This document shows positions 5,911 through 39,427 of a stretch of DNA of 49,516 bases, piece after piece. The notes below the pieces were generated by a model. The model was not told the DNA's origin, ran no database searches, and saw only the letters and a list, made by a program, of their open reading frames with translations. The number at the start of each line of letters is the position of its first letter. Position 1 is the first letter of the stretch. A program made the position numbers and the translations under genes. This DNA comes from Parachlamydiales bacterium (lineage in GTDB: Bacteria > Chlamydiota > Chlamydiia > Chlamydiales > JAEMRK01): the NCBI GenBank assembly GCA_016463375.1, contig JAEMRK010000004.1, forward strand, positions 12,797 through 62,312, given 5' to 3'.

Positions 5911-6853
5911 AGTGCTATTAGTAACCGGCTGCGCCGGTTTTATAGGAATGCATGCTGCATTATATGCAAAACGCCGTGGAGATAAGGTGATAGGGCTTGA
6001 TCACTTTAATGACTACTACGCTATTAAACTGAAACGCGATCGCGAAAAAATTCTTAAAGACAATGGCATCGATGTCATTGATTGCGATGTTTGTGATCAA
6101 AAAAAATTAGAACAAATCATTGAAGAACATAAAATCACACATTTTCTCCATTTAGCTGCTCAAGCCGGTGTTAGGTATTCTCTAGAAAATCCCAACGCTT
6201 ATTTACATAGTAATGTAAATGGCTTTACAAGTGTTTTGGAAGCTATTCGCAAATTCCCACACATACCCCTCATTTACGCATCGTCTTCTTCTGTTTATGG
6301 CACTAACGACAAGCTCCCTTTTTCTGTAGATGACACAACGGATCATCCAGCCAACTTTTATGGTGCTACAAAAAAAGCCAATGAAGTGATGGCCTATTCC
6401 TACCACCATTTGTTTAAAATCAAAGTGACAGGTCTCAGATTTTTCACAGTCTATGGACCATGGGGCAGACCTGATATGGCTTACTATTCATTTGCTGAAG
6501 CCATAAAAAAAGGTATTCCTATCAATGTCTTTAATAATGGAAATATGAGCCGCGATTTCACGTACATTGATGATATCGTTGAAGGTACATTATCTGCTGT
6601 CGATCATGCTTATGATTGTGAGCTATTCAATTTAGGTGACAATGATCCACAGGATCTTGGCACCATGATTGAATACATTGAAAATGCATTGAATAAAAAA
6701 GCGATTATAAATTACTTGCCAATGCAGCAAGGAGATATGCTCAGCACGTATGCAGACATTTCTCATTCACAATTAAAACTTAAATTTCAGCCGAAGACAC
6801 CTTTAAAAGACGGCATTAATCAATTTATAGAGTGGTTTAAAAATTATGAATAA
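5903..6853 (+). CDS. UDP-glucuronate 4-epimerase (NAD-dependent epimerase, GAE/LpsL/WcaG type)
   Basis: GCAGFIG, HLAAQAGVRYS, YASSSSVYG, YGATK, RFFTVYGPWGRPDMA. Start moved to ATG 5903 (MSKVLLVTG), which overlaps the glf stop. Confidence 0.92.
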   Translation: MSKVLLVTGCAGFIGMHAALYAKRRGDKVIGLDHFNDYYAIKLKRDREKILKDNGIDVIDCDVCDQKKLEQIIEEHKITHFLHLAAQAGVRYSLENPNAYLHSNVNGFTSVLEAIRKFPHIPLIYASSSSVYGTNDKLPFSVDDTTDHPANFYGATKKANEVMAYSYHHLFKIKVTGLRFFTVYGPWGRPDMAYYSFAEAIKKGIPINVFNNGNMSRDFTYIDDIVEGTLSAVDHAYDCELFNLGDNDPQDLGTMIEYIENALNKKAIINYLPMQQGDMLSTYADISHSQLKLKFQPKTPLKDGINQFIEWFKNYE

Positions 6854-7304
6854 ACTCCCCTCCTTTTCTTTAAAAGACTCTCAAGGAAATATACATAGCA
6901 ATCAAGATTGCCAAGGTTGTTACACACTACTTTATTTTTATCCTAAAGACGACACTACAGGTTGTACAAAACAAGCATGTCTTTATCGTGATCTTAAAGT
7001 TGAACTTCTTGAAAAAGGGATAAAAATTATAGGGGTTAATCCAGCACCGTCTCATCAAAAATTTGAAACCAAATACGAATTGAATTTCCCCATTTTGTGT
7101 GATGATCAGCTTGATCTATGTAAAAAAATGGAAGTCTGGAAAGAAAAATCGATGTATGGCCGCAAATATATGGGTGTTGAACGCTCATGTTTTTTAATAA
7201 ACCCTGATGGAATCATCGTTTGGGAAAAAAGAAATGTTTCGCTTGCAGGTCATCAAGAAGAATTGTTAAAAGTGGTAGAGACATTTCTCATACACAATAA
7301 CTAA
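6846..7304 (+). CDS. bcp: Peroxiredoxin, BCP/PrxQ family
   Basis: YFYPKDDTTGCTKQAC (PxxxTxxC plus resolving Cys); KSMYGRKYMGVERS. Confidence 0.9.
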   Translation: MNKLPSFSLKDSQGNIHSNQDCQGCYTLLYFYPKDDTTGCTKQACLYRDLKVELLEKGIKIIGVNPAPSHQKFETKYELNFPILCDDQLDLCKKMEVWKEKSMYGRKYMGVERSCFLINPDGIIVWEKRNVSLAGHQEELLKVVETFLIHNN

Positions 7305-7314
7305 GGACATAACT

Positions 7315-7809
7315 ATGACATTGAAAAAAGGCGATCGCGCACCCGATTTTGAATTAACCACTAAAGCAAAAGATGGTCCAAAAAAACTAAAATTGTCGGA
7401 TAACTACGGAAAAAAAAATACAGTTCTTTTATTTTTCCCTATGGCTTTTACCGGCGGTTGCACTCAAGAAATGTGTGATGTCAGCAAAGGCCTTCACAAT
7501 CTCGATCAAGATAATTCAATAGTATGGGGCATCAGCGGAGATAACCCTTTTTCTCAAGAAGCTTGGGCTCAAAAAGAACATATCACAGTATCTCTGCTAT
7601 CCGATTACGATCATGCTGTTACAAAAGATTACGGTGTTGCCTATGAAAGCTTTTTACCTGACCATAACTTAGGTATGAAAGATGTTCCTAAACGTGCTGC
7701 ATTTGTAGTCGGTAAAGACGGTACCATACAATATGCAGAATCAAATGATGATCCACACTTAATGCCAGATTTTAAAAAAATCGTTGAGGTTTTAAAATCT
7801 TTACAATGA
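7315..7809 (+). CDS. Peroxiredoxin (AhpC/TSA family, AhpE-like)
   Basis: GDRAPDF, FFPMAFTGGCTQEMC, GISGD, LLSD, RAAFVV; AAGGA RBS upstream. Confidence 0.88.
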   Translation: MTLKKGDRAPDFELTTKAKDGPKKLKLSDNYGKKNTVLLFFPMAFTGGCTQEMCDVSKGLHNLDQDNSIVWGISGDNPFSQEAWAQKEHITVSLLSDYDHAVTKDYGVAYESFLPDHNLGMKDVPKRAAFVVGKDGTIQYAESNDDPHLMPDFKKIVEVLKSLQ

Positions 7810-8546
7810 TTAGCGTTACCATACTCACAAAAAATTCACAAAGGCATCTCAAAGCTGTCTTAGATTCTTTAAGATCTTTTGATGAAATCATTGTTTTAGA
7901 TAATGGATCAGACGATCAAACTTTGGATATTGCTCAGCAATATCCAAATGTTCGTATTCATAAAACGCCATTTATAGGTTTTGGTCCCCTGCACAATCAG
8001 GCATCGAATTTAGCTAAACACGATTGGATATTATCAATAGACAGTGATGAAATTTTAAGTGAGGGTCTTTTGCATGAAATTCAATCTTTAAATCTTAATG
8101 CTGATGCTATTTATTCATTTCCAAGACATACCTACTACAGAGGTAAGTTAATTCGGGGGTGTGGCTGGTATCCAGATCGAATTGTACGAATTTATAATCG
8201 TAAAAAAACACAGTTTTCAAATGATCAAGTTCATGAACGTATTTTAAAAGATGGTTTATTAGAAATTAGGCTCAAAGAGCCAATTATCCACTACTCCTAC
8301 ACAACGATTAGTGATTTTTTATCTAAGATGCAAAGTTACTCTGAACTTTTCGCAAAAAATTATAGGGGCAAAAAAAAATCATCGCCATTGATAGCGTTAA
8401 CACATTCTGCTGGAGCTTTCTTTAAAAGCTATTTTTTAAAGCGCGGGATTTGGGATGGGTATGCAGGATTTTTAATCTCATTTTATCAAGCTCATACAGC
8501 CTTTTACAAATATTTAAAGCTTTATGAAGCGAATAAAGACATTTAA
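7806..8546 (+). CDS. GT2 glycosyltransferase (WaaE/KdtX-like LPS core glucosyltransferase)
   Basis: ISVTILTKN, DNGSDDQT, WILSIDSDE, GWYPD..R, VHE, LKRGIWDG. Confidence 0.88.
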   Translation: MISVTILTKNSQRHLKAVLDSLRSFDEIIVLDNGSDDQTLDIAQQYPNVRIHKTPFIGFGPLHNQASNLAKHDWILSIDSDEILSEGLLHEIQSLNLNADAIYSFPRHTYYRGKLIRGCGWYPDRIVRIYNRKKTQFSNDQVHERILKDGLLEIRLKEPIIHYSYTTISDFLSKMQSYSELFAKNYRGKKKSSPLIALTHSAGAFFKSYFLKRGIWDGYAGFLISFYQAHTAFYKYLKLYEANKDI

Positions 8547-8551
8547 TATCT

Positions 8552-9646
8552 TTAGGTTAATAATTTTTTATAAATCGCTTCCATCTGGTCCAAAGTCTTA
8601 TTAAAAGTAAATTTATCCTCTACTAAACTTTTAGCGTTTTTTCCAAATTTAATCCGTTTACTTTTATCAACAGCTAAATCCATTACAGCATTGGCAACTT
8701 CATATGGGCTAGCAGGGCTTACTAAAATACCAGTTTGATTATTAATACAAACTTCTTTTAGCCCGCCTACAGGTGTTGTCACTAACGGCTTTTCTAAATA
8801 AGCTGCTTGCAAGCTTGCTTGGCTGACACCCTCACTTGCTGTACTTAGCAAAACAAAGATGTCAAATGATGCAATTGCTGTGTAAGGCGGTGTTAAATAT
8901 CCTGTAAATATTACAGAATTTTCAAGACCAAGTTCTCGACACTCTTTTTGAAAACGCCCTTCAGATGCTTCGTTACCAACTATCATCCATTTGAGATGTG
9001 TATGATCTTGCAACTTCTTTGCAGCCTGCAAAAAATCTGAAATTCCTTTCCAGCTGCGTAGCACGCAAGCTGTTCCAATTAAGCAATCATCATCTTTAAT
9101 GCCCCATTGATCGCGGAATTTTTTCACATCTTCTTGAGACACTTGTAATACTGATGGATCAACACCTGTCGGTATTGAGCAACATCTATTTTCAGTTAAA
9201 TCAGCTTGTAGACATATCGTATCAGCAGTTTCTTGACATGTCGTGACAACTTGATCGGCCAAGTGATTATAAACAATTTTGGAATTAAGGCCTGTGCGTA
9301 TATTTGAAGAGATATGCCTTGTTCGAATCACACGAGCTCCAGAAACTCTTGCTGCAATACCAGCAAGCCAAGCATCTTTGGATGAATGAGTATTCACAAT
9401 GTGATATTGCTCTTTTTTAAATAAACGAGATAGCTGCATGATGTTTTTTATTCTCGAACCTTTAAAAGGTATTTCGTGAACTACAAATCCTTCGGCACGA
9501 GCTTTTTCAATCAGCTTGCCGCCACTAATGACAGCTAACTCTACATCATAACCTCTTAGTCGCATGCCAATTGCTTCTCGCAGCACACGCATCTCTTGAC
9601 CACCCCAACCACTAGATGCTTCAGTATGTAAAATTCTAATTTTCAT
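8552..9646 (-). CDS. GT4 (GT-B fold) glycosyltransferase
   Basis: MKIRILHTEASSGWGGQE, NTHSSKD, RTRH, EGVSQASLQA. Start set at ATG 9646, which overlaps the mutY stop, instead of 9757. Confidence 0.9.
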   Translation of the reverse strand: MKIRILHTEASSGWGGQEMRVLREAIGMRLRGYDVELAVISGGKLIEKARAEGFVVHEIPFKGSRIKNIMQLSRLFKKEQYHIVNTHSSKDAWLAGIAARVSGARVIRTRHISSNIRTGLNSKIVYNHLADQVVTTCQETADTICLQADLTENRCCSIPTGVDPSVLQVSQEDVKKFRDQWGIKDDDCLIGTACVLRSWKGISDFLQAAKKLQDHTHLKWMIVGNEASEGRFQKECRELGLENSVIFTGYLTPPYTAIASFDIFVLLSTASEGVSQASLQAAYLEKPLVTTPVGGLKEVCINNQTGILVSPASPYEVANAVMDLAVDKSKRIKFGKNAKSLVEDKFTFNKTLDQMEAIYKKLLT

Positions 9647-27882: not shown

Positions 27883-30800
27883 TTAGCCAGCCGTATCGAA
27901 TAAATCGCTCTTTTGTTTTTGCCCTAAATAAGGAAAGTTTGAACCAAAAGGTAGAGATGCCTCAAGCTTAGGAGTTGTATCCATTACTAGTTCTTCTTGA
28001 CTATGAGCCATTACAGGTTGAGGTACAGAAGCTACTAATGATTCGGGTAGGCTTTTAGGCGATAACTGCTGTGACATCAAAGGAGCATTTGATTGAATTG
28101 GGGCTGGTTCTGGCATTGTTTTATTAACAAAACTTTTAAAGTTATTCATGAATGCTTCGTATTCTGTTTTAGCACGCTCAAGTGTCACCATTTGAGCCTG
28201 ACTTTCTTGTAATTGAGTTTGCAAAGCCAAGTAACGCTCTTGCGATTGTTTCATTTGATCTTCGTACCAATGAAGTTTTTCATTAGCTAAATGTTGCAAT
28301 TTTTGTGATTGCTCTTTTTCTTGATCAATTAAATCTTGTAATGACTTTGTTTTGGAACGATGCTCACTAAGTTCTTCTTTAAAAGATGCTAAAGCCATAT
28401 TTTGTTCTTCGATGATGGCTTTAGAGTTCAAATTCTCTTGAATTCTCTCTGAAATTTCAACGTCTTTATCAGCGGTAGCCCGATTTTTTTCTTCCACTTC
28501 TTCTTGAAGTTCTTGTACTTGAAGCCAGCCTGTGCGCACTTCATCTTGTAATTTTGCAATGAGACCACTTTGTTTTTCTTCGATCTGCATACTTTTTTGT
28601 AAAATGTCTTTAAGCTTGGCAGACTCTGCGAGAAATTCTTTTTCTTGAAGAGCTATGGCTTGAGCTGCTCGTTGCTGAGATTGATCAAGAGCTGTTTTAA
28701 ACGTTTGTTTTAGATGAACGATTTCACGATCCTTAACTTCAAGATTTTGACGAGTTTTATCTTGATGCTGTTTCCAAAGGACTTCAAAATTTTTACTGTT
28801 TTCTTGCCATTCTTTTTCTTTAATCGAAAAAGCAACTTTTTCATCTTCTAATTGTGCGATTTGTTGTTGGGCTAGAAAAACCTCTTCGTCTAACAGGGTA
28901 CGCTCTTCTCTTGCTTTTGATAATTCACATTTAGCTTTTTCCCAAGCTTCTTGCCATTTATCTTTATCGCGTGATTCTGACGCCATTAACTGAGAGTAAA
29001 GAGCAGCATCTTCTGCCTTTTCGGCAATCTTATATTGCAGCTCTTCTAAAAGCACTGCATTAACATCTGAAATTTCTTCAATCTGGTATTTTAAAAAATC
29101 AATTTCAGATTTGTAGATAATTTGCTTTTCTTCAAATTCTCGATTCAATTCTTCTTTAAATGCATGAGCTTCTTTTAATCGCTCAGATAAAGAAAATATT
29201 TCACTTCTTGTTTCTAGTCGTAAAACTTCTAGCTGATGCAATGCAGAATTTTTTTCGTCTTCTAGCTCGATAACGCCATGATTAAGAGCTGCAATTTCTT
29301 GTCCTTTTTCTTCCAATTGCTGTTTTAGATCATTTTGAACTGTGACAAGTTGTTGTTCGGAATATTCAAATTTCTCTTGCCACTCTAAAAGTTGAGCATG
29401 TAATTCATGGTGCTCACTCTTTAATCTTGCATCCAGTGAAGAAATTGTACGATCTGCATCTTGAACTTTTTGTTGAAGCGCGGACAATAAAGCATCTTTG
29501 TCGCTCATTTGACGCTCTGTCTCATACGACAATGTTAAATGCTCTCTTTGAGTAGCTGCAAGCTTCTCGTACAAAGAACTTGTTTCTCTTTCTTTATCTA
29601 GACGGAATTGCTCCCAATCTTGACGCATTGTCTCTTTAATTTTTTCAGCATCTATTAATTTCTTTTTGATTGCGATGACTTCATTTTCAAGTGCAATGCG
29701 ACGATTATGCATTTCTTGTTCATGAGCGATCTCAGTCTTTTTTGCATCTTCATAAGCTGCTTGCAATACAAGAAGCTGTTTGTCTTTTTCATTAACCGTT
29801 TCTTGCAAGCGCTGACGCTCTAACAAAGAGGCCTTATAGGCTTCTTGATGTTTGGAAAGTAAATCTTCTTTAGCACAACATTCTGCAAAGGTTTCTTGTC
29901 TGGCCAGATCGAGATCTTGTAATGTTTTTTGCAATTGGTCGATGAGATTTTCTTTAGATTTTAAAGTTTGCTCTATTTCAATAGACACATGCTTTTCTTG
30001 CATAAGACGCTCATGCCAAAGAACGAGTTCATTTTCCGCATCAAGCTTTTGCTGTTGAAGCATTTGACAAGCACTATCTTTAAGCTGCTTTTCTTCTTGA
30101 AGAGTGCGCTGTAAATCAACGACCATCTTTTCTTTAGATTTAAGCTCTTCAGCCTGCTCTCTTAGAAGATATAAACCATGTTCTTTTTCATGGCGTAAAA
30201 TTTCATTATGATGTTGAGCTTGATTTAGCTTCTCAACAAATTCATTTTTAGAGGCATTAGAATGAGTTTGCTGTATTTCTTTTTCGAAGGCTTCTAAACT
30301 TTGTTTACTATGGCGATATTCAATTTCTAAAGAAGAGTATTCTTTTTGAAGGTCTTCAAGTTGAGCTTGTTTTTCTAAAAAATGTGATTGAGTTTGTTCA
30401 ATGAGTTCTTTAAGTGTCGTTACTTCCTTAACAAGCTCGTTATTTTTGATTTCATAAGAAGCTATATCAGTTTTTGCAACATTTTCTTGTAACCTTAAAT
30501 TTTGCAAAGTGTGTTTGGTTTCTTCAACCAACATTTTTAAATGGACATTGTCTTCTGCTAGATCTGCTTCATGCCTTTTGGCCTGTTGCAATTGATAATC
30601 TAAATTTTCACAAAGAATAGTTTGCTCTTTGACTTGGTCTAAAGCCTTCTTTAAAGACTCTGCCATTTGAGTTTGTCGCAGTCGCATTGTTTCAAGATCT
30701 TCTTGCGATCTCTTTAAAAGACGCTTTTCTGCCTCAAGATGAGCAATTTTCTGGTGCTGTAAATCTGTTTTACTTTTAGTTTGTTCGTAAATCAGTTCAA

Positions 30801-31293
30801 GCTCTTTAACACGTGCTAAAGCATTATCTTTAGCTTTTGTGAGATCTTGTTGGTCTCTTCTAGCGTCACTAATTTCTTTATTTAAATTTTGAAGTTTTTG
30901 CCTTGCTGTTTTTAAATCAATTAGAGCTTTCTTTAAAGCTTCTTGAGGAACAGATCCTTGATCTTTGGAATAATAAGTGACATTTTCATTGAGGATGCGA
31001 TCTGTATTTTTTAATCTTTGAATTTCATTTTGGGCCAATTGTAGCTGAGAATCTAATGAAGAGTGTTGTTCTTTTTTTGCATGAATTTCGCTTTGCAGTT
31101 CATTTACATGACATTTAGCTTTTTTAAGCTCTATAACGGTGCGTTTTAAAATTGATGCCATTTGCATCTGTTCTTTTTTATGACGCAGACGCTGTTTTTC
31201 TTGTTGTGAGGCTCCATCTTCAACTACAGATTGGTCTTGGTTCGATAGATTGTTGATGAGATGATTAAATTCTTCATCGGTGTAGATATTCAA
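27883..31293 (-). CDS. 1136-aa long coiled-coil protein
   Basis: E/Q/K/L heptads and nearly Pro-free over ~1050 aa; Pro-rich tail; GAGGT RBS before TTG; stop abuts the ruvC start; no Walker A. Confidence 0.88.
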   Translation of the reverse strand: MNIYTDEEFNHLINNLSNQDQSVVEDGASQQEKQRLRHKKEQMQMASILKRTVIELKKAKCHVNELQSEIHAKKEQHSSLDSQLQLAQNEIQRLKNTDRILNENVTYYSKDQGSVPQEALKKALIDLKTARQKLQNLNKEISDARRDQQDLTKAKDNALARVKELELIYEQTKSKTDLQHQKIAHLEAEKRLLKRSQEDLETMRLRQTQMAESLKKALDQVKEQTILCENLDYQLQQAKRHEADLAEDNVHLKMLVEETKHTLQNLRLQENVAKTDIASYEIKNNELVKEVTTLKELIEQTQSHFLEKQAQLEDLQKEYSSLEIEYRHSKQSLEAFEKEIQQTHSNASKNEFVEKLNQAQHHNEILRHEKEHGLYLLREQAEELKSKEKMVVDLQRTLQEEKQLKDSACQMLQQQKLDAENELVLWHERLMQEKHVSIEIEQTLKSKENLIDQLQKTLQDLDLARQETFAECCAKEDLLSKHQEAYKASLLERQRLQETVNEKDKQLLVLQAAYEDAKKTEIAHEQEMHNRRIALENEVIAIKKKLIDAEKIKETMRQDWEQFRLDKERETSSLYEKLAATQREHLTLSYETERQMSDKDALLSALQQKVQDADRTISSLDARLKSEHHELHAQLLEWQEKFEYSEQQLVTVQNDLKQQLEEKGQEIAALNHGVIELEDEKNSALHQLEVLRLETRSEIFSLSERLKEAHAFKEELNREFEEKQIIYKSEIDFLKYQIEEISDVNAVLLEELQYKIAEKAEDAALYSQLMASESRDKDKWQEAWEKAKCELSKAREERTLLDEEVFLAQQQIAQLEDEKVAFSIKEKEWQENSKNFEVLWKQHQDKTRQNLEVKDREIVHLKQTFKTALDQSQQRAAQAIALQEKEFLAESAKLKDILQKSMQIEEKQSGLIAKLQDEVRTGWLQVQELQEEVEEKNRATADKDVEISERIQENLNSKAIIEEQNMALASFKEELSEHRSKTKSLQDLIDQEKEQSQKLQHLANEKLHWYEDQMKQSQERYLALQTQLQESQAQMVTLERAKTEYEAFMNNFKSFVNKTMPEPAPIQSNAPLMSQQLSPKSLPESLVASVPQPVMAHSQEELVMDTTPKLEASLPFGSNFPYLGQKQKSDLFDTAG

Positions 31294-31517: not shown

Positions 31518-31976
31518 ATGCAATTGACATCGCCAGCTTTCAAACATTCATCATCTATTCCAGCTCTTTTCACCTGTGATGGAGAGAATATTAATCCTCC
31601 ATTAAATATTAAAGATGTGCCAAGTCAGGCAAAATCTCTAGTCCTAATTTTCGAAGATCCAGACGTGCCTTCATATGTAAGAAAAGATGGTCTCTACATT
31701 CATTGGGTTGTCTTTAACATGGATGTTATGACAAAAACAATTGAAGAAGGTATTCCACCCAAAGCACTTTTTGGCATTAATACAAGTGAAAAAACAAGTT
31801 ATGTTGGCCCATGTCCTCCAGATAAAGAACATCGATATTTTTTTAAATTGTATGCTCTCAAAGAATCACTTTCATTAAAAACAGGGGCAACAAAAGATGA
31901 GGTCATGGAGGCAATGTCTGATTTGGTGATTGAAGAAACTGAATTGATGGGTCTTTATGACAGAGCAAGGAGTTAG
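31518..31976 (+). CDS. YbhB/YbcL (PEBP/RKIP-like) protein
   Basis: LTSPAF, TCDGENINPPL, EDPD.P, HWVVFN, GPCPPD..HRYFF.LYAL. Confidence 0.93.
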   Translation: MQLTSPAFKHSSSIPALFTCDGENINPPLNIKDVPSQAKSLVLIFEDPDVPSYVRKDGLYIHWVVFNMDVMTKTIEEGIPPKALFGINTSEKTSYVGPCPPDKEHRYFFKLYALKESLSLKTGATKDEVMEAMSDLVIEETELMGLYDRARS

Positions 31977-32000
31977 GGCTTTTTTTCAAAAGCCCTAACT
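31971..32000. terminator. Hairpin between convergent genes, probable bidirectional terminator
   Basis: Perfect 13-bp stem AGTTAGGGCTTTT (31971-83) / AAAAGCCCTAACT (31988-32000), 4-nt loop. Confidence 0.8.
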
Positions 32001-32004
32001 ATTG

Positions 32005-34911
32005 TTAATAACTCGCTGTAACTGAGAAATTAAACATACCAAAAGAATCATCATAAGAATTGAGCTTATGTAATTTAATTCCATAGTCGCAGCGTGCTGT
32101 AATATATGGGTTTAAATTAAATCTTAATCCGGGACCGACACTCCATACATAATCATTAGCTTTAATGCCGTTAGCTGCATTGTAATTATGTCCAAAGCCA
32201 AAATCAGTGAAGAACAAATAAGATAATTTAGGAGATAGTTCTCTACATTTCATTTGTAGCGGTGGTGCATACCATTCTACATTAATACATAGTGCATTAT
32301 CTGCATTAAATTCTCTTTCTTCGTATCCTCTAACTGTATACATACCGCCCAGACCAAACTGCTCACTTGGTAACAAGCTACCAGTTGCAACTTGACCTCT
32401 TAATTGACTACGTATTGAACTTTCATTATACCAAGTGTATTTATGAGAAAAATTTACCCGAGCATAATCAAAATCTGGTTCTGCACCATTGCGTAAAGCT
32501 TGGTAATCAGATCTTGATTGATCAGGGAATATCTGTCCTGGTGAGAATATGTTTTCCACCAATAATGAAAACTCGTGATCGTAGTAGATAAAATTTGTTT
32601 TATAAGAAAAGTATAATTCAAAAATATTAACTGTATTTGCAATAACTGGCACAACACTTTGATTTGCTATAAATAGCAAGTTACTGTTGATGTTCTTGTA
32701 ATCAACACCAAATGCTATCTCACTGTTGTCTAATGTATAGAGTGGCAAAAATGGCATTGTATAGTGAGCACTTCCATATGCACTTCTACCCTCGTTCGAA
32801 AAGTCAGTAATATCTGCATGAACCTCTGCAAAACCACCAGCTAATGTCAATATATTCTTGTTTGGTAAGAATACCATGTAATTAGCATAATGGGCACTAA
32901 AGGCATGTAAGCTTTCACCAAATGTATATTGGTAGGTAAACAAGTCATTGACTCCATAAGGCGAGCTCCAATTAAAACCTACATAGAACCGTGTTTTACC
33001 AGTAACTTCTGTTCCAGTATTATCCACACCAATATATGGACGCAGTGGGAAACGATCTCTTGTAACAATTTGTAAATTAGTTGAACTGCCATCATCGCTA
33101 GGAGATAAAACAATTTCACTTTGATGAAATGGATTACGGTTGAACCAAGCTAAGCTATTTAAAACATCCTCTTGATCAAATTCGCATTCGCCCTGAACGT
33201 TTATAGTATCGATAATCAAATCATCCGAAAACCATTCATTGCCACATGTTGAAACACATCCAACATATCCTTCAAAAATATGGAAAACAATAATTCCACA
33301 AATCACTTCTTGTGCTGGAATATTAACTACGACCAATGGTCTTTTTTGCGTTTGATAGTGTTTGATAATGTCTTGCTTAATAGCGCTAAGATTCTCAACA
33401 GAAATTTCTTTCCCCACATATGGAGTCAAAATGTTTTTTAAGTTTGATTGATTAGGTATTTTCATTTCCCAAACAGTAAATTCACCAACAGTACTATCGG
33501 GTACGTACTCAATCGACGATGTCAGAACAATTCCCCTAATTATCTCTTGGCAACATGGAGTCTCTGGGCAACATTCTTTAGACAAATCTTGAGCCTGTTG
33601 ATTCATACCATCTTGGTACATATCAATTGGTTGATTTATACATTGATCTTGAGAAGGAATTTGCGACTGATTAGGCAACATTTGATTTTGAGACAAATCA
33701 ATTGGCATAGTGTCATTATTTACAGGTACATTCGGTATTGCATTATTGGATGGGCTGCTTGGCATTTGTCCTTCAGGCAGTCCATAATTTTGCATTGGAT
33801 CAGAACCAATAGGAATATCTACTGCATTAGAATTATTTTGCATAGCAGGTGGAGATACTATCTTTGGCTGATCCGAATTTGGTATATCAGGATTTTGTGG
33901 TGCAGGTATAGGTAAATTATTACCATTTTGCACAGGTGTTGGATATGTAGAAATACCAGGTGAGCCAGGCATATTTAGTGAGTTAGGCACATTGTTGTTA
34001 GGTGTTGTGTAGTTTGTACCGTTGTAGCCATTGAATGTTTCATAGCCACTTGGAGTTTGTGTATTTACATCATTTTGAGATGATGTTTTTGGAATCGTAC
34101 TTTGTGGCTGACTCACATTTGGTTGATTGGGCTGAGTAGGCCCATAACTTCCCTCTTGCATCTGCGTTGGGTAAGTCGTATTCGGTGTATTGGGTAAGTT
34201 ATTTTGGCCAGGTAGATTTGTTTGGCCCGGTAAGTTTGACGAATTAGGACTGTTTGGTTGCGATGGTGGATTAGACAAACCTGGCAAATTTATATTGTTC
34301 GGATTGTTATCATTAATTCCACTATTATAGCTACTTGGATATTGAGGATTCGAACCATCTGGCAATCTAGTGGTTGGCGCAGTATTAGTAGTGCCAGGTT
34401 GCGATGGCGCTGGAGTTTGAGACGTTGGATTTAATGGTGTAACCCCACTTTGGATAGGCGTTGGACTAGTTACAGAGGTGTCTGTTGAAGTCGACATAGT
34501 CGCAGCTTTAATACTATTATCATCTACTTTGATGATAATAGTGCCTTGATAAAGGTCCTGCGATGAAACACTAACGTCTACATAAAAACCTGTTTCTTGA
34601 TGATAATGCTGTATTATAGCAGCCTTAATCAAAGAGTTCTGCATTTCAGTCATATCTTTACCAAGATATGACTCTAATTTTTTATTTAATGCAGATTCAT
34701 TTGGTATATTCAAACCAGATGTCGAAACCATTCCACTTGAAATAATTTTAGCGCGGTCGGGAGCAGATGTTAAAAGAATTGCTTTTAACGGTCTGTTACT
34801 CACACTGGTCTTCACAGACTGCCCAGAATTTGTAGTTTCAGGACTTAATACATTTAAGTTAGCCCAGCCAGTGGAGAAAAATAGAAACAAAAATATGTAT
34901 GATCTTTTCAT
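32005..34911 (-). CDS. TpsB (ShlB/FhaC/HecB) Omp85-family transporter with an extra POTRA and a long low-complexity linker
   Basis: Signal peptide from ATG 34911 (MKRSYIFLFL), POTRA segments, DNTG...TG..R, QFGLGG..TVRGY, terminal aromatic residue. Confidence 0.88.
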   Translation of the reverse strand: MKRSYIFLFLFFSTGWANLNVLSPETTNSGQSVKTSVSNRPLKAILLTSAPDRAKIISSGMVSTSGLNIPNESALNKKLESYLGKDMTEMQNSLIKAAIIQHYHQETGFYVDVSVSSQDLYQGTIIIKVDDNSIKAATMSTSTDTSVTSPTPIQSGVTPLNPTSQTPAPSQPGTTNTAPTTRLPDGSNPQYPSSYNSGINDNNPNNINLPGLSNPPSQPNSPNSSNLPGQTNLPGQNNLPNTPNTTYPTQMQEGSYGPTQPNQPNVSQPQSTIPKTSSQNDVNTQTPSGYETFNGYNGTNYTTPNNNVPNSLNMPGSPGISTYPTPVQNGNNLPIPAPQNPDIPNSDQPKIVSPPAMQNNSNAVDIPIGSDPMQNYGLPEGQMPSSPSNNAIPNVPVNNDTMPIDLSQNQMLPNQSQIPSQDQCINQPIDMYQDGMNQQAQDLSKECCPETPCCQEIIRGIVLTSSIEYVPDSTVGEFTVWEMKIPNQSNLKNILTPYVGKEISVENLSAIKQDIIKHYQTQKRPLVVVNIPAQEVICGIIVFHIFEGYVGCVSTCGNEWFSDDLIIDTINVQGECEFDQEDVLNSLAWFNRNPFHQSEIVLSPSDDGSSTNLQIVTRDRFPLRPYIGVDNTGTEVTGKTRFYVGFNWSSPYGVNDLFTYQYTFGESLHAFSAHYANYMVFLPNKNILTLAGGFAEVHADITDFSNEGRSAYGSAHYTMPFLPLYTLDNSEIAFGVDYKNINSNLLFIANQSVVPVIANTVNIFELYFSYKTNFIYYDHEFSLLVENIFSPGQIFPDQSRSDYQALRNGAEPDFDYARVNFSHKYTWYNESSIRSQLRGQVATGSLLPSEQFGLGGMYTVRGYEEREFNADNALCINVEWYAPPLQMKCRELSPKLSYLFFTDFGFGHNYNAANGIKANDYVWSVGPGLRFNLNPYITARCDYGIKLHKLNSYDDSFGMFNFSVTASY

Positions 34912-34930
34912 CGATGTCTCAAATATTGCG

Positions 34931-37900
34931 TTAATAGATGACTGTCTGGTCGCCAATGGCTCTTAAAATGACTGCCTTTTTAATACTAGATCCTGTGCAA
35001 TCCACCGGAATGGTTGCATTGTTACAATCGCTGTAGCCCCACCAATAAATTGGAAATTGCCACTTGTATAGTGCTTCACTGATAGCTGTTAAAAAATCTA
35101 AATAAGTCTGACTTGACACTGAAGAGAGTGCTGTACCACCATTTTTGTAATAAATTGTAAATGGTGTTCCGCCACTACCTCCAGGATAATAAACTCCCCA
35201 CTGCTCTTGGGATGAATTAGCAAATTCTTCACCTGGAACATAAGCTGTTCCATTGATAGTTGAGGGTACAGTGTTTAAATCTCTTAATGCTGAATAGAGT
35301 TTAACTGTTGTACCAGCAGTTAAAGTAACAGCATTAGCCAAGTTAAAAAACCCAGTTCCAATCGTTGGTGCTGTAGGAGATAAATTATCTACTACAAGTG
35401 TTAAGCTACCGTTAGTACTATGAATATCTGCATTGGTAGTCGCTACAATATCTTCACCTGCAATCAACAATACATTACCACTAGTGCTTGCATAAACTGC
35501 AGCACCGCTATTCAATACGATATTATGGTCATAAGCTTGAACTGTGATATTACCAGTTGTTGAAGTAAGTGTAGAGTTTGTACCAAGAGTTATGTCACTA
35601 CTTGTAGTTTGGGTATTACCTGCACCATTATTAAGAGTTAAAGTTAACGACCCGGTACCCGATGTAATAATTACACCATTTGCAACAGTAAAACTAGCTG
35701 TTCCAGTTAGTCTGTCATTGTTGCTAACACCACTTGCAGCTGTATCATTTGCAGTAATTATCAAATTACCATTATCCGTTGTGATATTTTGATTTATTGT
35801 GACACTGCGACCAGCTGATAAAGTTAAATTACCACCATTTCCACTTGGATTATTAGCAACAATTGGAGAATTAATGGTAATGTCGTTATTAGCCTGCATA
35901 ATGACAGGTGTTCCAACATTAAGAAGATTTTTTATTGCTAAAGATGAAACTGTTAAGTCCTGGCTTGGAAATTGTCCATAATCAACATTAGCTGGATCAT
36001 TTAAACCTGCGTTAACTGTACCATTTCCGGAAGTGAAAACGGCATAAGTGATACCATTAACAGTATCTTCAACAAAATTCGTCGCTTTGTTTTGACTTAA
36101 TCCAGAAGACGCGTTAGGACCAAAATAACTATTTCCAATGTCTGGAACTGATCCTGTAAGTGTATTTAAGCCATCATTGTAAACAACAGCTCCAATGTTT
36201 GTTCCAGCGCTAGTATCAAAATTGGGGAAATGGGCAACAAATTTACCTCCAGAAATTGCTAAAGCATCCAGACCTACACCATCATTTGCAGTAACTCCAT
36301 GTAAACTATTTGAACCAGTAACTGTCGCATTAGAAAAAGCTGCTTGAGGACATAAAGTGATTGCACCAACGTCTGCTGTCGTATTATTCCACAAGGGAGA
36401 ACAAACTAAAAAATTGCCATTGGTTAAAGCAACAACACTAGTTCCAACCTGGTCACCTACTGTAGTGCCATGCAGTGATTTAGAATCGTCCACAATACCA
36501 GTAACAACATCTTGAGGTGTTCCCCTAGAATATACTACAGCGCCTGCAGTGGCAGTAGGAGTTCCAGTTGTTGTCGCTGAAGGAAAGGCAGCTACAAAGC
36601 TTCCAAAGTTTTGGGTTATGTTCGGTAAAGCTGTTACATTTAAGCCGGTGCCATTATTTGCTGCTGGTCCATAAAGACTATTAGTTGTTGTGATAGCAGC
36701 ACCTGGCGATCCGTTTCCATTGCGTAAAGTTACTGCACCCACATTAGCTGTTGCCCCATTGTCCCACAAAGGCGAAACAAGGACATAGTTATTGTTAACT
36801 AAAGGAACTATTATTCTTCCTACATCATCTAAGTTGGTACTTCCATATGTAGAATTAGTTGTGCTAACAAGACCAACTGCTCCCGTCGATGCACACCAAG
36901 TGGCAGCTCCTACTTGAGCACCACCATTTGTCCAAGTTGGTGATCCGACAACATAATTATCATTTGTTAATGCTACAATTACAGTACCCACAGCATCATT
37001 TGCTGTTGAACCATACAAGCTATTAGTTGTTGCAACAGCACCAACATATGTTGGACCTGACAATGGCATACGAGTTGCCGCGCCAACAGCTGTTGCACCA
37101 TTGTGCCATGTGGGTGAACCTACAACAAATGCATTTCCATCAAGTGCAGTAATCACAGCACCGACGCCATCATTGGCAGTTGTTCCGTACAAACAATTAG
37201 CAGTTGACGGAGAGCCACCACTAGGGGTAATTGTACCATTATTAGTACTACAAAAAGCGATTCCTGATTGTGCAATTCCGTTTATTGTGTAATTAGGAGC
37301 TCCAATAACATAGTCTCCATTTTCTAAAGGTACAATCAATTGACCTAAACGATCGCCCGGCGAACCTCCTGTAACACCAATTAAACTATTTGTTGAATTC
37401 ATAGTCCCCGAATTACCATTGACTCCACCACGAGTTCCCACAATACCTTTATTATTGTCCCAAGTTGGTGAAGCGACAACGTAATTACCGTTTGTTAATG
37501 CATAAACATTCCCAATTAGATCGCCATTTAAACTGCCTGTGATACAAATATTTGGCGCAAGTGTTACGTTGGTTGTACTTGTAGCCGATCCCCTATAAAC
37601 AGCCCCAGCATTTGGAACGCCAGTTACTGTAAAGTTAGGTGAGGAAATAACAAAATCACCACCAGTAAGCTGAATGACACCACCTGAGCTGACGTTATCT
37701 GTTGAAACAGCACCAGAAATCGTAGAATTAAGAGCACCAGTCATCCCATTATAGAGATAAACAACACCAGCGTTAGCAGGTTTTGTTACCACGACATTCC
37801 CAGAAATTAGAGGAAGTACAATAGTTCCAAATCCAGGACTTGGATTGGGATCAACAAGTGTGAAATGAGGAAATGTTCCCGTTGTGTCATCAATAATAAT

Positions 37901-39427
37901 ATTGCGCGGATCTAATAGAAGTGTTCCAGATTTATCAAGACCTGTGACATCAACTTGGGCACCATAATAAAATTTGTTTTTTCCAGAAACTTCAACAAAA
38001 CCGCCGTGTCGACCAGTTGCTGTCACTGTTGCTGCGCAATATGTGTAATCTTCTGAATTAACTATAACTTTACCGCCATGTGATTCTGAAGATCCATCGG
38101 CTTTAAAAGTTGTGGCATGGTTAATTTGAACATGATTTGCAATTAAACTAATTTCTCCACCACTTTGACCGCTCACATCAACTGTTGCTGCATTGATTGC
38201 GATGTCATCGCTAGTGAATGCGATGGTTCCACCATTATTTATGCCTTTTGATTCATAATGACCCGAGCTAAATAAACGCCCATCTTCATTATGAATTTTT
38301 ATTGTGCCTCCAATTATTCCACTTGCGACTAGATGAGACGACTCTGTTTCGATCCAATTCTTATTAGTGTTTATTAAGATGTTTCCGCCAGAACCATCTG
38401 TTCCGATAGCTAAAATTTCACCACCATGTAACCCTTTATCACTTGAAATTTCTACTGTTCCACCATTAGGTCCTGATACATCAATTGTTCCATTAGCAAA
38501 AAGAGTTCCTTGGTCTTTAATTTCGACATGACCACTTGATGCTTTTAAAGATCCATTTAATTGGGATAGTTGATCACCAATGTCCAATAGTATAGTTCCG
38601 TTATTACCAGCGTCGATAACACTATCACTGTCTAAGTTGACTTGGTTTGCGACTAAATGAACTTTGCCATTTCGCATGACACACATTGTCGCATCGGAAG
38701 TAGACTTGGGTATTGCTAAAGAATAGGCACTGCCTTCTTCATTAATCTGATCTTTGATCAGATTAATTTTTCCGGTCATAGAAATTTTACCTTCCGGATC
38801 TACCATTGATGGCTTAATTGTAATCCATCTGGTGCCTTCTGGTTTTAAATAGAACTGATGTCCGGTTAGTAAATTGACATCAACAGCATCGATGTCCCCA
38901 TCATTAACTATTGTTTCAGATAAAAGAGTGACTGTACCTGCCAATGTCTCAATTTTACCAAGATTTATAATCGATCCATTAGAAGAACCAGCAAATGTCA
39001 TCATGGCATTATTGATAAACTCTTCAATGCTCATATCTAATGTTGAGGAGACAAAATCTGCCGCTTTGATAAAGCCATCTTTTCCGATGACAACGCCATT
39101 GGGATTAACCAAATAAACACGGCCATTAGCTTGCAGCGTTCCCATAATTTGAGAAAGATCTCCACCAGTTACTCGATTAAGGACTGCTGAATCAATTGCT
39201 GGCTGAATGAACTGCGTAATTTCTCCAGATCCTATAGAAAAACTATTCCAATCGATCACTGCTTTATCACTTGTCATGATATTCAGTGTATTTTCGATCG
39301 ACGTAAACTGAGCATCACCATAAACAACTTGCGGATCGGTCGGATTAGCAAGTAATGTCCCATGTGCCAAAAGCAACGAAGCAAAGGTAGTTAATTTTCG
39401 GATTTTTTTTGAAGATTTACGACGCAT
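34931..39427 (-). CDS. TpsA filamentous-haemagglutinin-family exoprotein with internal repeat domain
   Basis: Signal peptide, TPS domain (IDWNSFSI, VLNRV, G.L.ANG.VYLVNPNGV), GG.I.I beta-helix rungs, LLLDP motif, about 10 L.NG(N/D)YVV.SP.W...GA repeats. Confidence 0.92.
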   Translation of the reverse strand: MRRKSSKKIRKLTTFASLLLAHGTLLANPTDPQVVYGDAQFTSIENTLNIMTSDKAVIDWNSFSIGSGEITQFIQPAIDSAVLNRVTGGDLSQIMGTLQANGRVYLVNPNGVVIGKDGFIKAADFVSSTLDMSIEEFINNAMMTFAGSSNGSIINLGKIETLAGTVTLLSETIVNDGDIDAVDVNLLTGHQFYLKPEGTRWITIKPSMVDPEGKISMTGKINLIKDQINEEGSAYSLAIPKSTSDATMCVMRNGKVHLVANQVNLDSDSVIDAGNNGTILLDIGDQLSQLNGSLKASSGHVEIKDQGTLFANGTIDVSGPNGGTVEISSDKGLHGGEILAIGTDGSGGNILINTNKNWIETESSHLVASGIIGGTIKIHNEDGRLFSSGHYESKGINNGGTIAFTSDDIAINAATVDVSGQSGGEISLIANHVQINHATTFKADGSSESHGGKVIVNSEDYTYCAATVTATGRHGGFVEVSGKNKFYYGAQVDVTGLDKSGTLLLDPRNIIIDDTTGTFPHFTLVDPNPSPGFGTIVLPLISGNVVVTKPANAGVVYLYNGMTGALNSTISGAVSTDNVSSGGVIQLTGGDFVISSPNFTVTGVPNAGAVYRGSATSTTNVTLAPNICITGSLNGDLIGNVYALTNGNYVVASPTWDNNKGIVGTRGGVNGNSGTMNSTNSLIGVTGGSPGDRLGQLIVPLENGDYVIGAPNYTINGIAQSGIAFCSTNNGTITPSGGSPSTANCLYGTTANDGVGAVITALDGNAFVVGSPTWHNGATAVGAATRMPLSGPTYVGAVATTNSLYGSTANDAVGTVIVALTNDNYVVGSPTWTNGGAQVGAATWCASTGAVGLVSTTNSTYGSTNLDDVGRIIVPLVNNNYVLVSPLWDNGATANVGAVTLRNGNGSPGAAITTTNSLYGPAANNGTGLNVTALPNITQNFGSFVAAFPSATTTGTPTATAGAVVYSRGTPQDVVTGIVDDSKSLHGTTVGDQVGTSVVALTNGNFLVCSPLWNNTTADVGAITLCPQAAFSNATVTGSNSLHGVTANDGVGLDALAISGGKFVAHFPNFDTSAGTNIGAVVYNDGLNTLTGSVPDIGNSYFGPNASSGLSQNKATNFVEDTVNGITYAVFTSGNGTVNAGLNDPANVDYGQFPSQDLTVSSLAIKNLLNVGTPVIMQANNDITINSPIVANNPSGNGGNLTLSAGRSVTINQNITTDNGNLIITANDTAASGVSNNDRLTGTASFTVANGVIITSGTGSLTLTLNNGAGNTQTTSSDITLGTNSTLTSTTGNITVQAYDHNIVLNSGAAVYASTSGNVLLIAGEDIVATTNADIHSTNGSLTLVVDNLSPTAPTIGTGFFNLANAVTLTAGTTVKLYSALRDLNTVPSTINGTAYVPGEEFANSSQEQWGVYYPGGSGGTPFTIYYKNGGTALSSVSSQTYLDFLTAISEALYKWQFPIYWWGYSDCNNATIPVDCTGSSIKKAVILRAIGDQTVIY
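36000..37840 (-). repeat. About 10 tandem ~55-60-aa repeats (DUF5650-like/FG-GAP-like) inside TpsA
   Basis: Examples: ALTNGNYVVASPTW, PLENGDYVIGAPNY, ALDGNAFVVGSPTW, ALTNDNYVVGSPTW, PLVNNNYVLVSPLW, ALTNGNFLVCSPLW. Boundaries approximate. Confidence 0.85.

Follow-up and report, generated by a model that had tools for sequence, protein, structure and literature searches.

The stretch of DNA considered here (the window, 49,516 nt; Parachlamydiales bacterium, assembly GCA_016463375.1, contig JAEMRK010000004.1, positions 12,797 to 62,312 of the forward strand) encodes a putative outer-membrane transporter of two-partner secretion (TPS, type Vb), a TpsB protein, with an additional POTRA1-like domain carried in front of the canonical core on a long low-complexity tether. 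The gene, tpsB, occupies 32005..34911 on the minus strand, as seen in the list of open reading frames (ORFs) with their translations and in Pfam matches, and specifies 968 amino acids plus a stop codon from an ATG at 34911; its product is referred to as P0001. Window 32005-34956 (-) forms a single continuous open frame, and the ATG falls 19 nt past the stop codon of tpsA, the gene directly upstream. In the database, the locus is called as P0002 (932 aa), with a start at V37 (GTG) and no signal peptide; the two starts differ by window 34801-34911. Because the ATG at 34911 supplies a signal peptide and the V37 codon does not, we take the former as the more likely start. This predicted Sec signal peptide (34861..34911, -) spans residues 1 to ~17, with a cleavage site placed by eye from the hydrophobic N-terminus, and AlphaFold2 (AF2) models a helix at residues 5-13.

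By all criteria testable on sequence, P0001 is a TpsB that departs from the family in having a third POTRA domain and a tether. The protein scores 68 bits against Pfam ShlB (PF03865; E 1.2e-18, cut-off 22.7) and 34.1 bits against POTRA_2 (cut-off 24), the latter over two stretches, of which residues 488-548 are the best. Since a phmmer search with the single P0001 sequence against the sequences of the Protein Data Bank (PDB) returned 0 chains at E <= 0.01, a family profile was used instead; built from 120 homologues, it matches CdiB (6wim, E 3.1e-31) and FhaC (4qky, E 1.5e-22) over nearly their full length. The homologues derive from a word-seeded search with the core of the protein (residues 456-968), which yielded 144 proteins at E <= 0.001; the best 120 of the 144 were used, namely the window protein and 119 others among the matches listed, with P0002 dropped as the same protein. 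The VRGY motif of the L6 loop, named as a hallmark (PMC5422565), lies at V860-R861-G862-Y863, and across the 120 homologues R861 and G862 are invariant, V860 and Y863 nearly so.

In a full-length AF2 run with these 120 homologues, residues 456-968 reach a predicted local distance difference test (pLDDT) value above 90, and residues 456-620 form two strand-helix-helix-strand-strand units (pLDDT 88-97). The first is the canonical POTRA1 (33262..33546, -; residues 456-550), matched by Pfam POTRA_2 and, over residues 458-549, by a clade-specific hidden Markov model (HMM; see below) at 64.6 bits, and modelled at a pLDDT of ~90 or more. POTRA2 follows (33046..33261, -; approximately residues 551-622, boundaries taken from the model; pLDDT 88-97) with strands at 549-556, 596-604 and 610-619 and helices at 563-570 and 580-590. 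The remainder, approximately residues 623-968 (32008..33045, -), is the ShlB-type beta-barrel, matched by Pfam ShlB and modelled with ~16 long strands (AF2/DSSP) at a pLDDT above 90. The presumed secreted partner, tpsA (34931..39427, -; 1498 aa), carries a Pfam TPS domain (95.5 bits, cut-off 33.5), the haemagglutinin N-terminal model TIGR01901 (70.8 bits, cut-off 29.1) and nine DUF5650 repeats (Pfam). P0001 thus reads as the outer-membrane transporter of a type Vb operon, tpsA-tpsB, with a predicted role in secretion, and we are all but certain of the identity and anatomy of this protein.

What, then, is the extension? Residues 40-134 (34510..34794, -) are assigned to an extra N-terminal POTRA1-like domain, hereafter the N domain, by self-alignment, the clade HMM, AF2 and fold matches. 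BLASTP aligns residues 42-129 (nt ~34788-34525) with residues 458-545 of canonical POTRA1 (nt ~33540-33277) free of gaps, with 26 of 88 positions identical (30%; 55% positives, 45.8 bits, E 8e-11 in a two-sequence search space). The Smith-Waterman score of the two copies is 107, compared to 26.4 +/- 4.8 (maximum 56) for shuffled sequences, and none of 2000 shuffles reaches this value (z 16.9). The clade HMM was derived from the POTRA1 of those 108 homologues with one such domain, leaving out N-terminal copies and the window protein and thereby avoiding circularity; it finds residues 41-129 at 42.6 bits, covering HMM positions 2-94, and the N domain retains the Q, D and G of the family motif PEQDxTxG. 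When residues 36-140 were folded alone, on an alignment that matched the N domain to the POTRA1 of 110 other rows, AF2 returned POTRA topology (pLDDT 84.1, predicted template modelling score 0.77) in the order strand-strand-helix-helix-strand-strand, with strands at 9-13, 27-30, 77-80 and 89-95 and helices at 37-45 and 54-72; because it was built on a POTRA1 alignment, this model speaks for compatibility with the fold only. A Foldseek comparison of the model with the PDB gave no match at E <= 0.001, and its top rows are CdiB, the N-terminal POTRA of TpsB4 and FhaC (probability 0.96-1.0). VIA-align places the domain on CdiB 6wim residues 50-163 (Z 8.9) and FhaC 4qky residues 57-172 (Z 8.7), and all 50 listed rows are POTRA-containing chains. 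Together, these comparisons identify residues 40-134 as a diverged duplicate of POTRA1.

Between the two copies lies the tether (33547..34509, -), 321 aa spanning residues 135-455, delineated by composition and AF2. Measured between the HMM envelopes, it consists of 17% Pro, 15% Asn, 11% Ser, 10% Gln and 10% Thr, and in the full-length model it has a pLDDT of 30-45 and no secondary structure. The motif NLPG(L/Q) occurs three times within it; Tandem Repeats Finder reports a single tandem repeat in 33400-34600, an 18-nt unit present 2.6 times at 34193..34238 (-; score 57) that encodes NLPGQ(T/N) repeats. At the junction of tether and POTRA1, the sequence ECCPETPCCQE (33544..33576, -; residues 446-456) places cysteines at 447, 448, 453 and 454, a CC-x4-CC motif, and the Cys content of the whole protein is 1.24% compared to a homologue median of 0.54%. 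Such composition is unusual for this organism: the genome, 1.88 Mb in 125 contigs with a completeness of 98.9%, has 1257 stop-to-stop ORFs of >=200 aa, and only three of them contain a 100-aa window with >=58% P/N/Q/S/T, tpsB being the most extreme at 75%. The second is a small, apparently secreted ORF (G000:C4:17419-18180, -) with 30% Pro and 18% Gln in its last 100 residues, making it the only other Pro/Gln-rich one; the third is a Thr-rich 2036-aa frame on contig C29. The tether-coding region additionally contains a 155-aa antisense ORF (window 33448-33915, +) rich in W/R/I/L/Y, most likely a by-product of the low complexity on the opposite strand.

One Logan contig of 7433 nt (depth 20.4) spans window 31900-35300 with 0 differences. 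Its sample, the one run recorded as containing the stretch, is a freshwater metagenome that is probably also the source of the genome, so the contig represents the same data passed through another assembler and is only partly independent; no RNA data set is recorded as containing the stretch. Sequence inspection ahead of residue 456 revealed no hydrophobic stretch able to serve as a second signal peptide. Given this and the reproduction of the contig in a second assembly, tpsB is read as one gene rather than two. An earlier reading of this DNA, made from the letters alone (the sequence-only reading), had proposed a TpsB with two mutually similar segments, the N-terminal one a POTRA, joined by a disordered P/N/Q/S/T-rich linker with NLPGQ repeats that ends in ECCPETPCCQE. 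Each of these proposals is borne out by the analyses above: the ShlB and POTRA_2 matches and the adjacent TpsA with its TPS domain, the gap-free alignment, the clean HMM hit and the nearest folds, POTRA1 of CdiB and FhaC, and the composition and low pLDDT of the linker. As further possibilities, it had raised that the extra POTRA could span the periplasm and capture or chaperone TpsA at Sec, and that the linker might be glycosylated or disulfide-linked. Its premise of two POTRAs in a canonical TpsB is in line with PMC5422565 and PMC2878562, and the chimeric assembly it feared as a source of error finds no echo in the second assembly, which is identical over 31900-35300.

The other neighbours of tpsB are housekeeping genes, namely RuvABC, Nth, MnmE, an EamA transporter, a heptosyltransferase and GpsA; as tpsA and tpsB adjoin in the midst of them, the locus is a predicted chromosomal tpsA-tpsB operon. 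A hairpin with a 13-bp stem (31971..32000) lies between tpsB and a convergent PEBP-family gene and is likely a bidirectional terminator, although the terminator-like scan that includes it is a consensus match only, with 5 instances found in the region and 5.5 expected. A promoter scan gave 20 sites compared to 29.6 expected. Beyond the PEBP gene, at a distance of 0.7 kb from the operon, window 27883-31293 (-) encodes 1136 aa rich in Q/E/K; this protein is apparently a coiled coil and has no significant Pfam match.

How widespread is this layout? By their names, the core homologues stem from Chlamydiae, Parachlamydiales and Verrucomicrobia metagenome-assembled genomes (MAGs), and most comprise 532-610 residues; the closest non-self match is 41% identical over the core (best 120 of 144). 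Two POTRA1-like domains are present in 12 of the 120: the window protein, nine proteins of ~676-703 aa, and P0115 and P0116. In the nine, which include a Rhabdochlamydiaceae MAG locus (L015), an N-terminal POTRA is followed by a 22-43-aa linker and then POTRA1. Among 52 loci from species-representative genomes, two have a pair of POTRA1-like domains, L015, with a TpsA-like gene upstream, and L044. The latter, a Chlamydiales MAG TpsB (6512-8884, +), carries its two POTRA1-like domains 7 residues apart; no large TpsA-like ORF is adjacent to it within the 15.9-kb locus.

Long tethers recur in a betaproteobacterial-type group, consisting of P0115, P0116, P0134 and P0135, where an N-terminal POTRA precedes Pro/Ala-rich tethers of 119, 315, 362 and 478 aa; the P0116 cluster includes a Betaproteobacteria MAG member. 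P0134 and P0116 have N-terminal POTRAs that are 96% identical and tethers that differ by 47 residues (315 vs 362; total length 937 vs 996 aa), which suggests that tether length changes fast between close relatives. The window core is only 22-41% identical to the extra-POTRA TpsBs, and its tether is rich in Asn/Gln/Ser/Thr rather than Ala.

A third arrangement emerged from searches with the N domain, whose other matches include P0123 (905 aa), P0125 (1359 aa) and P0124 (1594 aa), with 4, 6 and 8 POTRA1-like domains, respectively, ahead of a TpsB core. A further protein, P0122 (890 aa, its length unchanged between a contig of 8552 nt and another of 3325 nt), consists of a signal peptide and eight POTRA1-like domains without a barrel. 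It could be a POTRA array free in the periplasm, or else what precedes the barrel in a TpsB that has been split. Proteins closely related to P0123 have the usual 569-610 aa, and the only relative that a metagenome scan with P0123 retrieved was 24% identical. P0124 resides on an 859-kb NCBI contig; among 400 genomes of the phylum it had 0 matches at E <= 1e-150. Within those 400 genomes, 345 have a Pfam POTRA_2 match (823 matches in total). Three genomes of a single family within the window's order (G306, G324 and G328 of f5) stand out with 12-13 matches each, compared to 1-5 in most others, which suggests large expansions of TpsB paralogues. The 41 genomes compared within the order, one per family, include 12 with a tpsB match. 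Being scattered across the homologues and absent from the order relatives, extra POTRA1 copies are, as far as these sequences tell, sporadic and lineage-specific.

Within single proteins, the POTRA copies are 27-30% identical in the window protein, 30% in P0042 and 42% in P0115 and P0116, while copies 2 and 3 of P0123 reach 75%. P0124 and P0125 are built from alternating A and B units, with 55-80% identity within a type and 32-44% between types, separated by charged linkers of 17-142 aa; because the two types alternate, a two-domain unit appears to have been amplified, and the high identity among the copies of P0123, P0124 and P0125 suggests that some amplifications are recent. In a domain tree made by a quick method (69 rows, 105 columns), the 'N copy' label has to change four times or more, and the N copies of P0115 and P0116 group with their own POTRA1s at 99% support. 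By the approximately unbiased test, one clade uniting the 12 N copies is not rejected (difference in log-likelihood 26.3, p 0.106). That extra copies arose repeatedly is likely rather than proven. As to constraint, the mean pairwise identity among seven 686-703-aa orthologues of the ~700-aa group amounts to 62% for the extra POTRA, 57% for POTRA1, 60% for POTRA2, 75% for the barrel and 26% for the linker. This clade therefore seems to keep its extra POTRA as carefully as the canonical ones; the window protein itself is without close relatives.

With the best-studied members of the family, FhaC of Bordetella and CdiB, the window protein shares the 16-strand ShlB-type barrel, the VRGY loop motif, two barrel-proximal POTRAs and a linked TpsA with a TPS domain. 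The solved FhaC and CdiB chains differ in measuring ~540-560 residues and in having an H1 helix and a 30-residue linker at the N-terminus, whereas the window protein has 968 residues, no predicted H1, and a third POTRA1-like domain on its 321-aa tether. In FhaC, H1 plugs the pore and the 30-residue linker lies on the substrate site of POTRA2 (PMC5422565). We rejected assignment to such an FhaC-like subtype, as AF2 shows no helix before POTRA1 besides those of the signal peptide (5-13) and the N domain. The plug and linker are in any case described as dispensable and not family-defining (PMC5422565), and many members of this TpsB clade seem to do without them, since the stretch preceding POTRA1 has a median of only 40 residues (n=108).

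Possession of more than two POTRAs is a feature of BamA (five) and TamA (three), whose periplasmic arms arose by domain duplication (PMC4104836), and the relatives with 4-8 POTRA1-like domains resemble such arms. BamA and TamA differ from the window TpsB, however, in having a Bac_surface_Ag barrel and contiguous Surf_Ag_VNR POTRAs without a long disordered tether, and in inserting outer-membrane proteins. Cyanobacterial Omp85 possesses a disordered low-complexity region of variable length, with 10-40% Pro and of unknown function, in front of its POTRAs (PMC2878562), but there the Pro-rich stretch forms the very N-terminus with no domain distal to it, and the protein is of the Omp85/BamA type. 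A cyanobacterial-type Omp85, with its Bac_surface_Ag (PF01103) barrel and three POTRAs behind a terminal Pro-rich region, was rejected as an identity for the window protein: PF01103 is not among its Pfam hits, and its Pro-rich stretch is inter-domain. Likewise rejected was a type Vd, PlpD-like protein, which would combine a patatin-type passenger with one POTRA and an Omp85-type barrel, as Pfam detects no patatin or other enzyme domain, the barrel is of ShlB type, two canonical POTRAs are present and a TpsA is encoded by a separate gene. The Pro-rich spacer of TonB is thought to span the periplasm with a binding domain at its end, being anchored in the inner membrane and reaching outward. The window TpsB would be anchored in the outer membrane and reach inward, and the two have no sequence relationship; the tethers of the betaproteobacterial group, with KP/EP-like runs, may be likened to the TonB spacer.

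TpsB-type proteins are stated to include only two POTRAs (Arnold et al. 2010, PMC2878562), and the available text of a 2017 review (PMC5422565) contains none of the phrases 'three', 'third', 'additional' or 'extra POTRA'. A full-text literature search, with supplementary tables and InterPro architecture lists outside its scope, found no paper on TpsBs with extra POTRAs. The sequence-only reading had allowed that the architecture might prove common and already described; the layout does recur, in 12 of 120 homologues, in proteins with 4-8 copies and in the betaproteobacterial group, but it is still rare and no description of it was found. The window protein thus represents a rare, recurrent and apparently undescribed variant of a well-known transporter family.

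What might a distal POTRA be good for? Recognition of TpsA by TpsB POTRAs involves a TPS domain in extended form and probably proceeds by beta-augmentation, at micromolar affinity and with rapid exchange, and how a very long unfolded TpsA crosses the periplasm to its transporter without aggregating is poorly understood (PMC5422565). We propose that the extra POTRA would stay in the periplasm and, like its canonical counterparts, bind extended, not-yet-folded segments of TpsA. The tether would let it sample the depth of the periplasm. By random-coil scaling, a 321-residue tether has a root-mean-square end-to-end distance of ~15 nm, on the order of the periplasm width, while its contour length exceeds 100 nm. 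The domain could thus capture or hold TpsA soon after Sec export and hand it over to POTRA1, POTRA2 and the pore, thereby raising the local concentration of TpsA and limiting its aggregation or degradation. A benefit from placing POTRA1-type sites farther from the membrane is suggested by the recurrence of the layout with chemically different Pro-rich tethers in Betaproteobacteria and by the multi-POTRA1 arms elsewhere. We consider this capture or holdase role the most likely one, although it falls somewhat short of an even bet, and anatomy and mechanism taken together as the best overall explanation, with chances evenly balanced. A bolder version, in which the tethered POTRA acts as a trans-periplasmic fishing line anchored in the outer membrane that seizes the TPS domain as it leaves Sec at the inner membrane and reels it to the pore, is possible but doubtful.

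Several findings weigh against such a role, or against the domain assignment on which it builds. In FhaC, the major TPS-binding site is on POTRA2 and not on POTRA1 (PMC5422565). Pfam POTRA_2 scores the N-terminal 145 residues alone at 16.2 bits (E 0.0095), below its 24-bit cut-off, with residues 70-129 matching positions 15-73 of the 76 in the profile; in the match of the whole protein, the N domain supplies the second stretch. Few rows of the alignment behind the full-length AF2 run cover the N domain, which reaches a pLDDT of only 50-72 there, and the confident model of the isolated domain is partly circular and provides no independent proof of the fold. An exhaustive HMMER search of 1.84 billion representatives matched the N domain in only 5 proteins at E <= 0.001, one of them the window's own. 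None of the TpsBs in the 40 related genomes of the order has the extension, all matches starting at or after query residue 440 in frames of <= 626 aa, and in the domain tree the window N domain sits on a long branch (1.86, compared to a median of 0.42). A joint model of residues 36-140 and the TPS domain (TpsA residues 29-300) scored 0.01 against a mark of 0.34 and has no bearing on binding in either direction.

Alternatively, the extension might serve as a spacer or anchor. In this case, the extra POTRA would have a ligand different from the substrate, for instance a protein of the inner membrane or periplasm, the cell wall or, via CC-x4-CC, the disulfide-linked envelope network of chlamydiae, and the tether would be a TonB-like ruler that positions or immobilises the transporter. 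The Cys cluster at the tether/POTRA1 junction and a Cys content about twice the homologue median fit this picture, as do the Pro-rich tethers of 119-478 aa with KP/EP-type runs that recur in a second lineage, and cyanobacterial Omp85, too, has a disordered Pro-rich N-terminal region (PMC2878562). The domain, however, is a copy of the substrate-binding POTRA1 and not a known wall- or membrane-binding module; the short-linker and multi-copy forms suit an extended binding arm better than a single anchor, and no partner is evident among the housekeeping neighbours. We therefore regard an anchor as unlikely.

The extension could also be a neutral relic, an old POTRA1 duplication followed by runaway low-complexity expansion that is tolerated but useless. 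This would agree with its being unique to the window lineage among the 41 genomes of the order, with an N domain that lies on a long branch and below the Pfam cut-off, and with the varying tether lengths of near-identical betaproteobacterial proteins (N domain 96%; 937 vs 996 aa). Yet a 1.3-kb frame has been held open in a genome of 1.88 Mb, in which comparable low-complexity runs are nearly absent (3 of 1257 ORFs), and the clade HMM still recognises the N domain over positions 2-94 (42.6 bits), with the Q, D and G of PEQDxTxG retained. Besides, the extra POTRA of another clade is as conserved as the canonical ones, and the combination of a distal POTRA with a long Pro-rich tether is found again in a TpsB lineage far removed from this one. 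On balance, a useless remnant strikes us as quite unlikely.

As another option, the tethered POTRA, or the end of the tether adjoining POTRA1, might act as a built-in regulator that docks on the canonical POTRAs or the pore, competes with the substrate and replaces the H1 and linker of FhaC. AF2 predicts no helix before POTRA1 besides those of the signal peptide and the N domain, and the 108 single-POTRA1 homologues have a median of 40 residues before POTRA1, signal peptide included, too short for H1 plus a 30-residue linker. No confident docking of the N domain on the core is seen in the model, though, and a plug function would be difficult to reconcile with arrays of 3-7 extra copies, leaving this option improbable. 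Surface display, in which the N domain and tether would pass through the barrel of the same protein, in the manner of type Vd secretion, and act outside the cell, could draw on the PlpD-like order of N-terminal module, POTRA and Omp85-type barrel. Stalks rich in P/N/Q/S/T are also common in surface proteins, which counts in its favour, and the N-terminus of FhaC H1 is found at the cell surface (PMC5422565). The N-terminal module here is nevertheless a POTRA, a periplasmic domain type, a separate TpsA substrate is encoded next door, and the short-linker tandem arrays of relatives resemble BamA-style periplasmic arms, so that we consider surface display very improbable. Finally, while low-complexity regions can mislead assemblers and the database gene call (P0002, 932 aa) uses another start, a chimeric assembly or two genes misread as one is hardly credible in view of the continuous frame, the 7433-nt contig (depth 20) in which another assembler arrived at a sequence without a single difference, the presence of just one short tandem repeat, a core without a second signal peptide, and analogous architectures on independent contigs elsewhere.

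TpsBs are the textbook minimal secretion machine, two POTRAs and a barrel. Should the fishing-line version of periplasmic capture hold, the transporter would bring its own means of targeting across the periplasm, and the proteins described here would form an unrecognised class of extended-reach TpsBs. Long Pro-rich tethers, as in Chlamydiota and Betaproteobacteria, and arms of 4-8 domains would then be alternative answers to one problem, possibly evolved independently. If the extension instead proved functionless, the case would still document the growth of a POTRA arm by duplication, as proposed for BamA. In either event, natural TpsBs with tethers of ~120-480 residues or with 4-8 POTRA1-like domains vary the reach and the number of binding sites while the core stays constant, so that the contribution of POTRA1, and a possible limit set on secretion by periplasmic capture, can be addressed directly through them. 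The value of the finding may accordingly lie less in the single chlamydial gene than in this set of natural extended-reach TpsBs.

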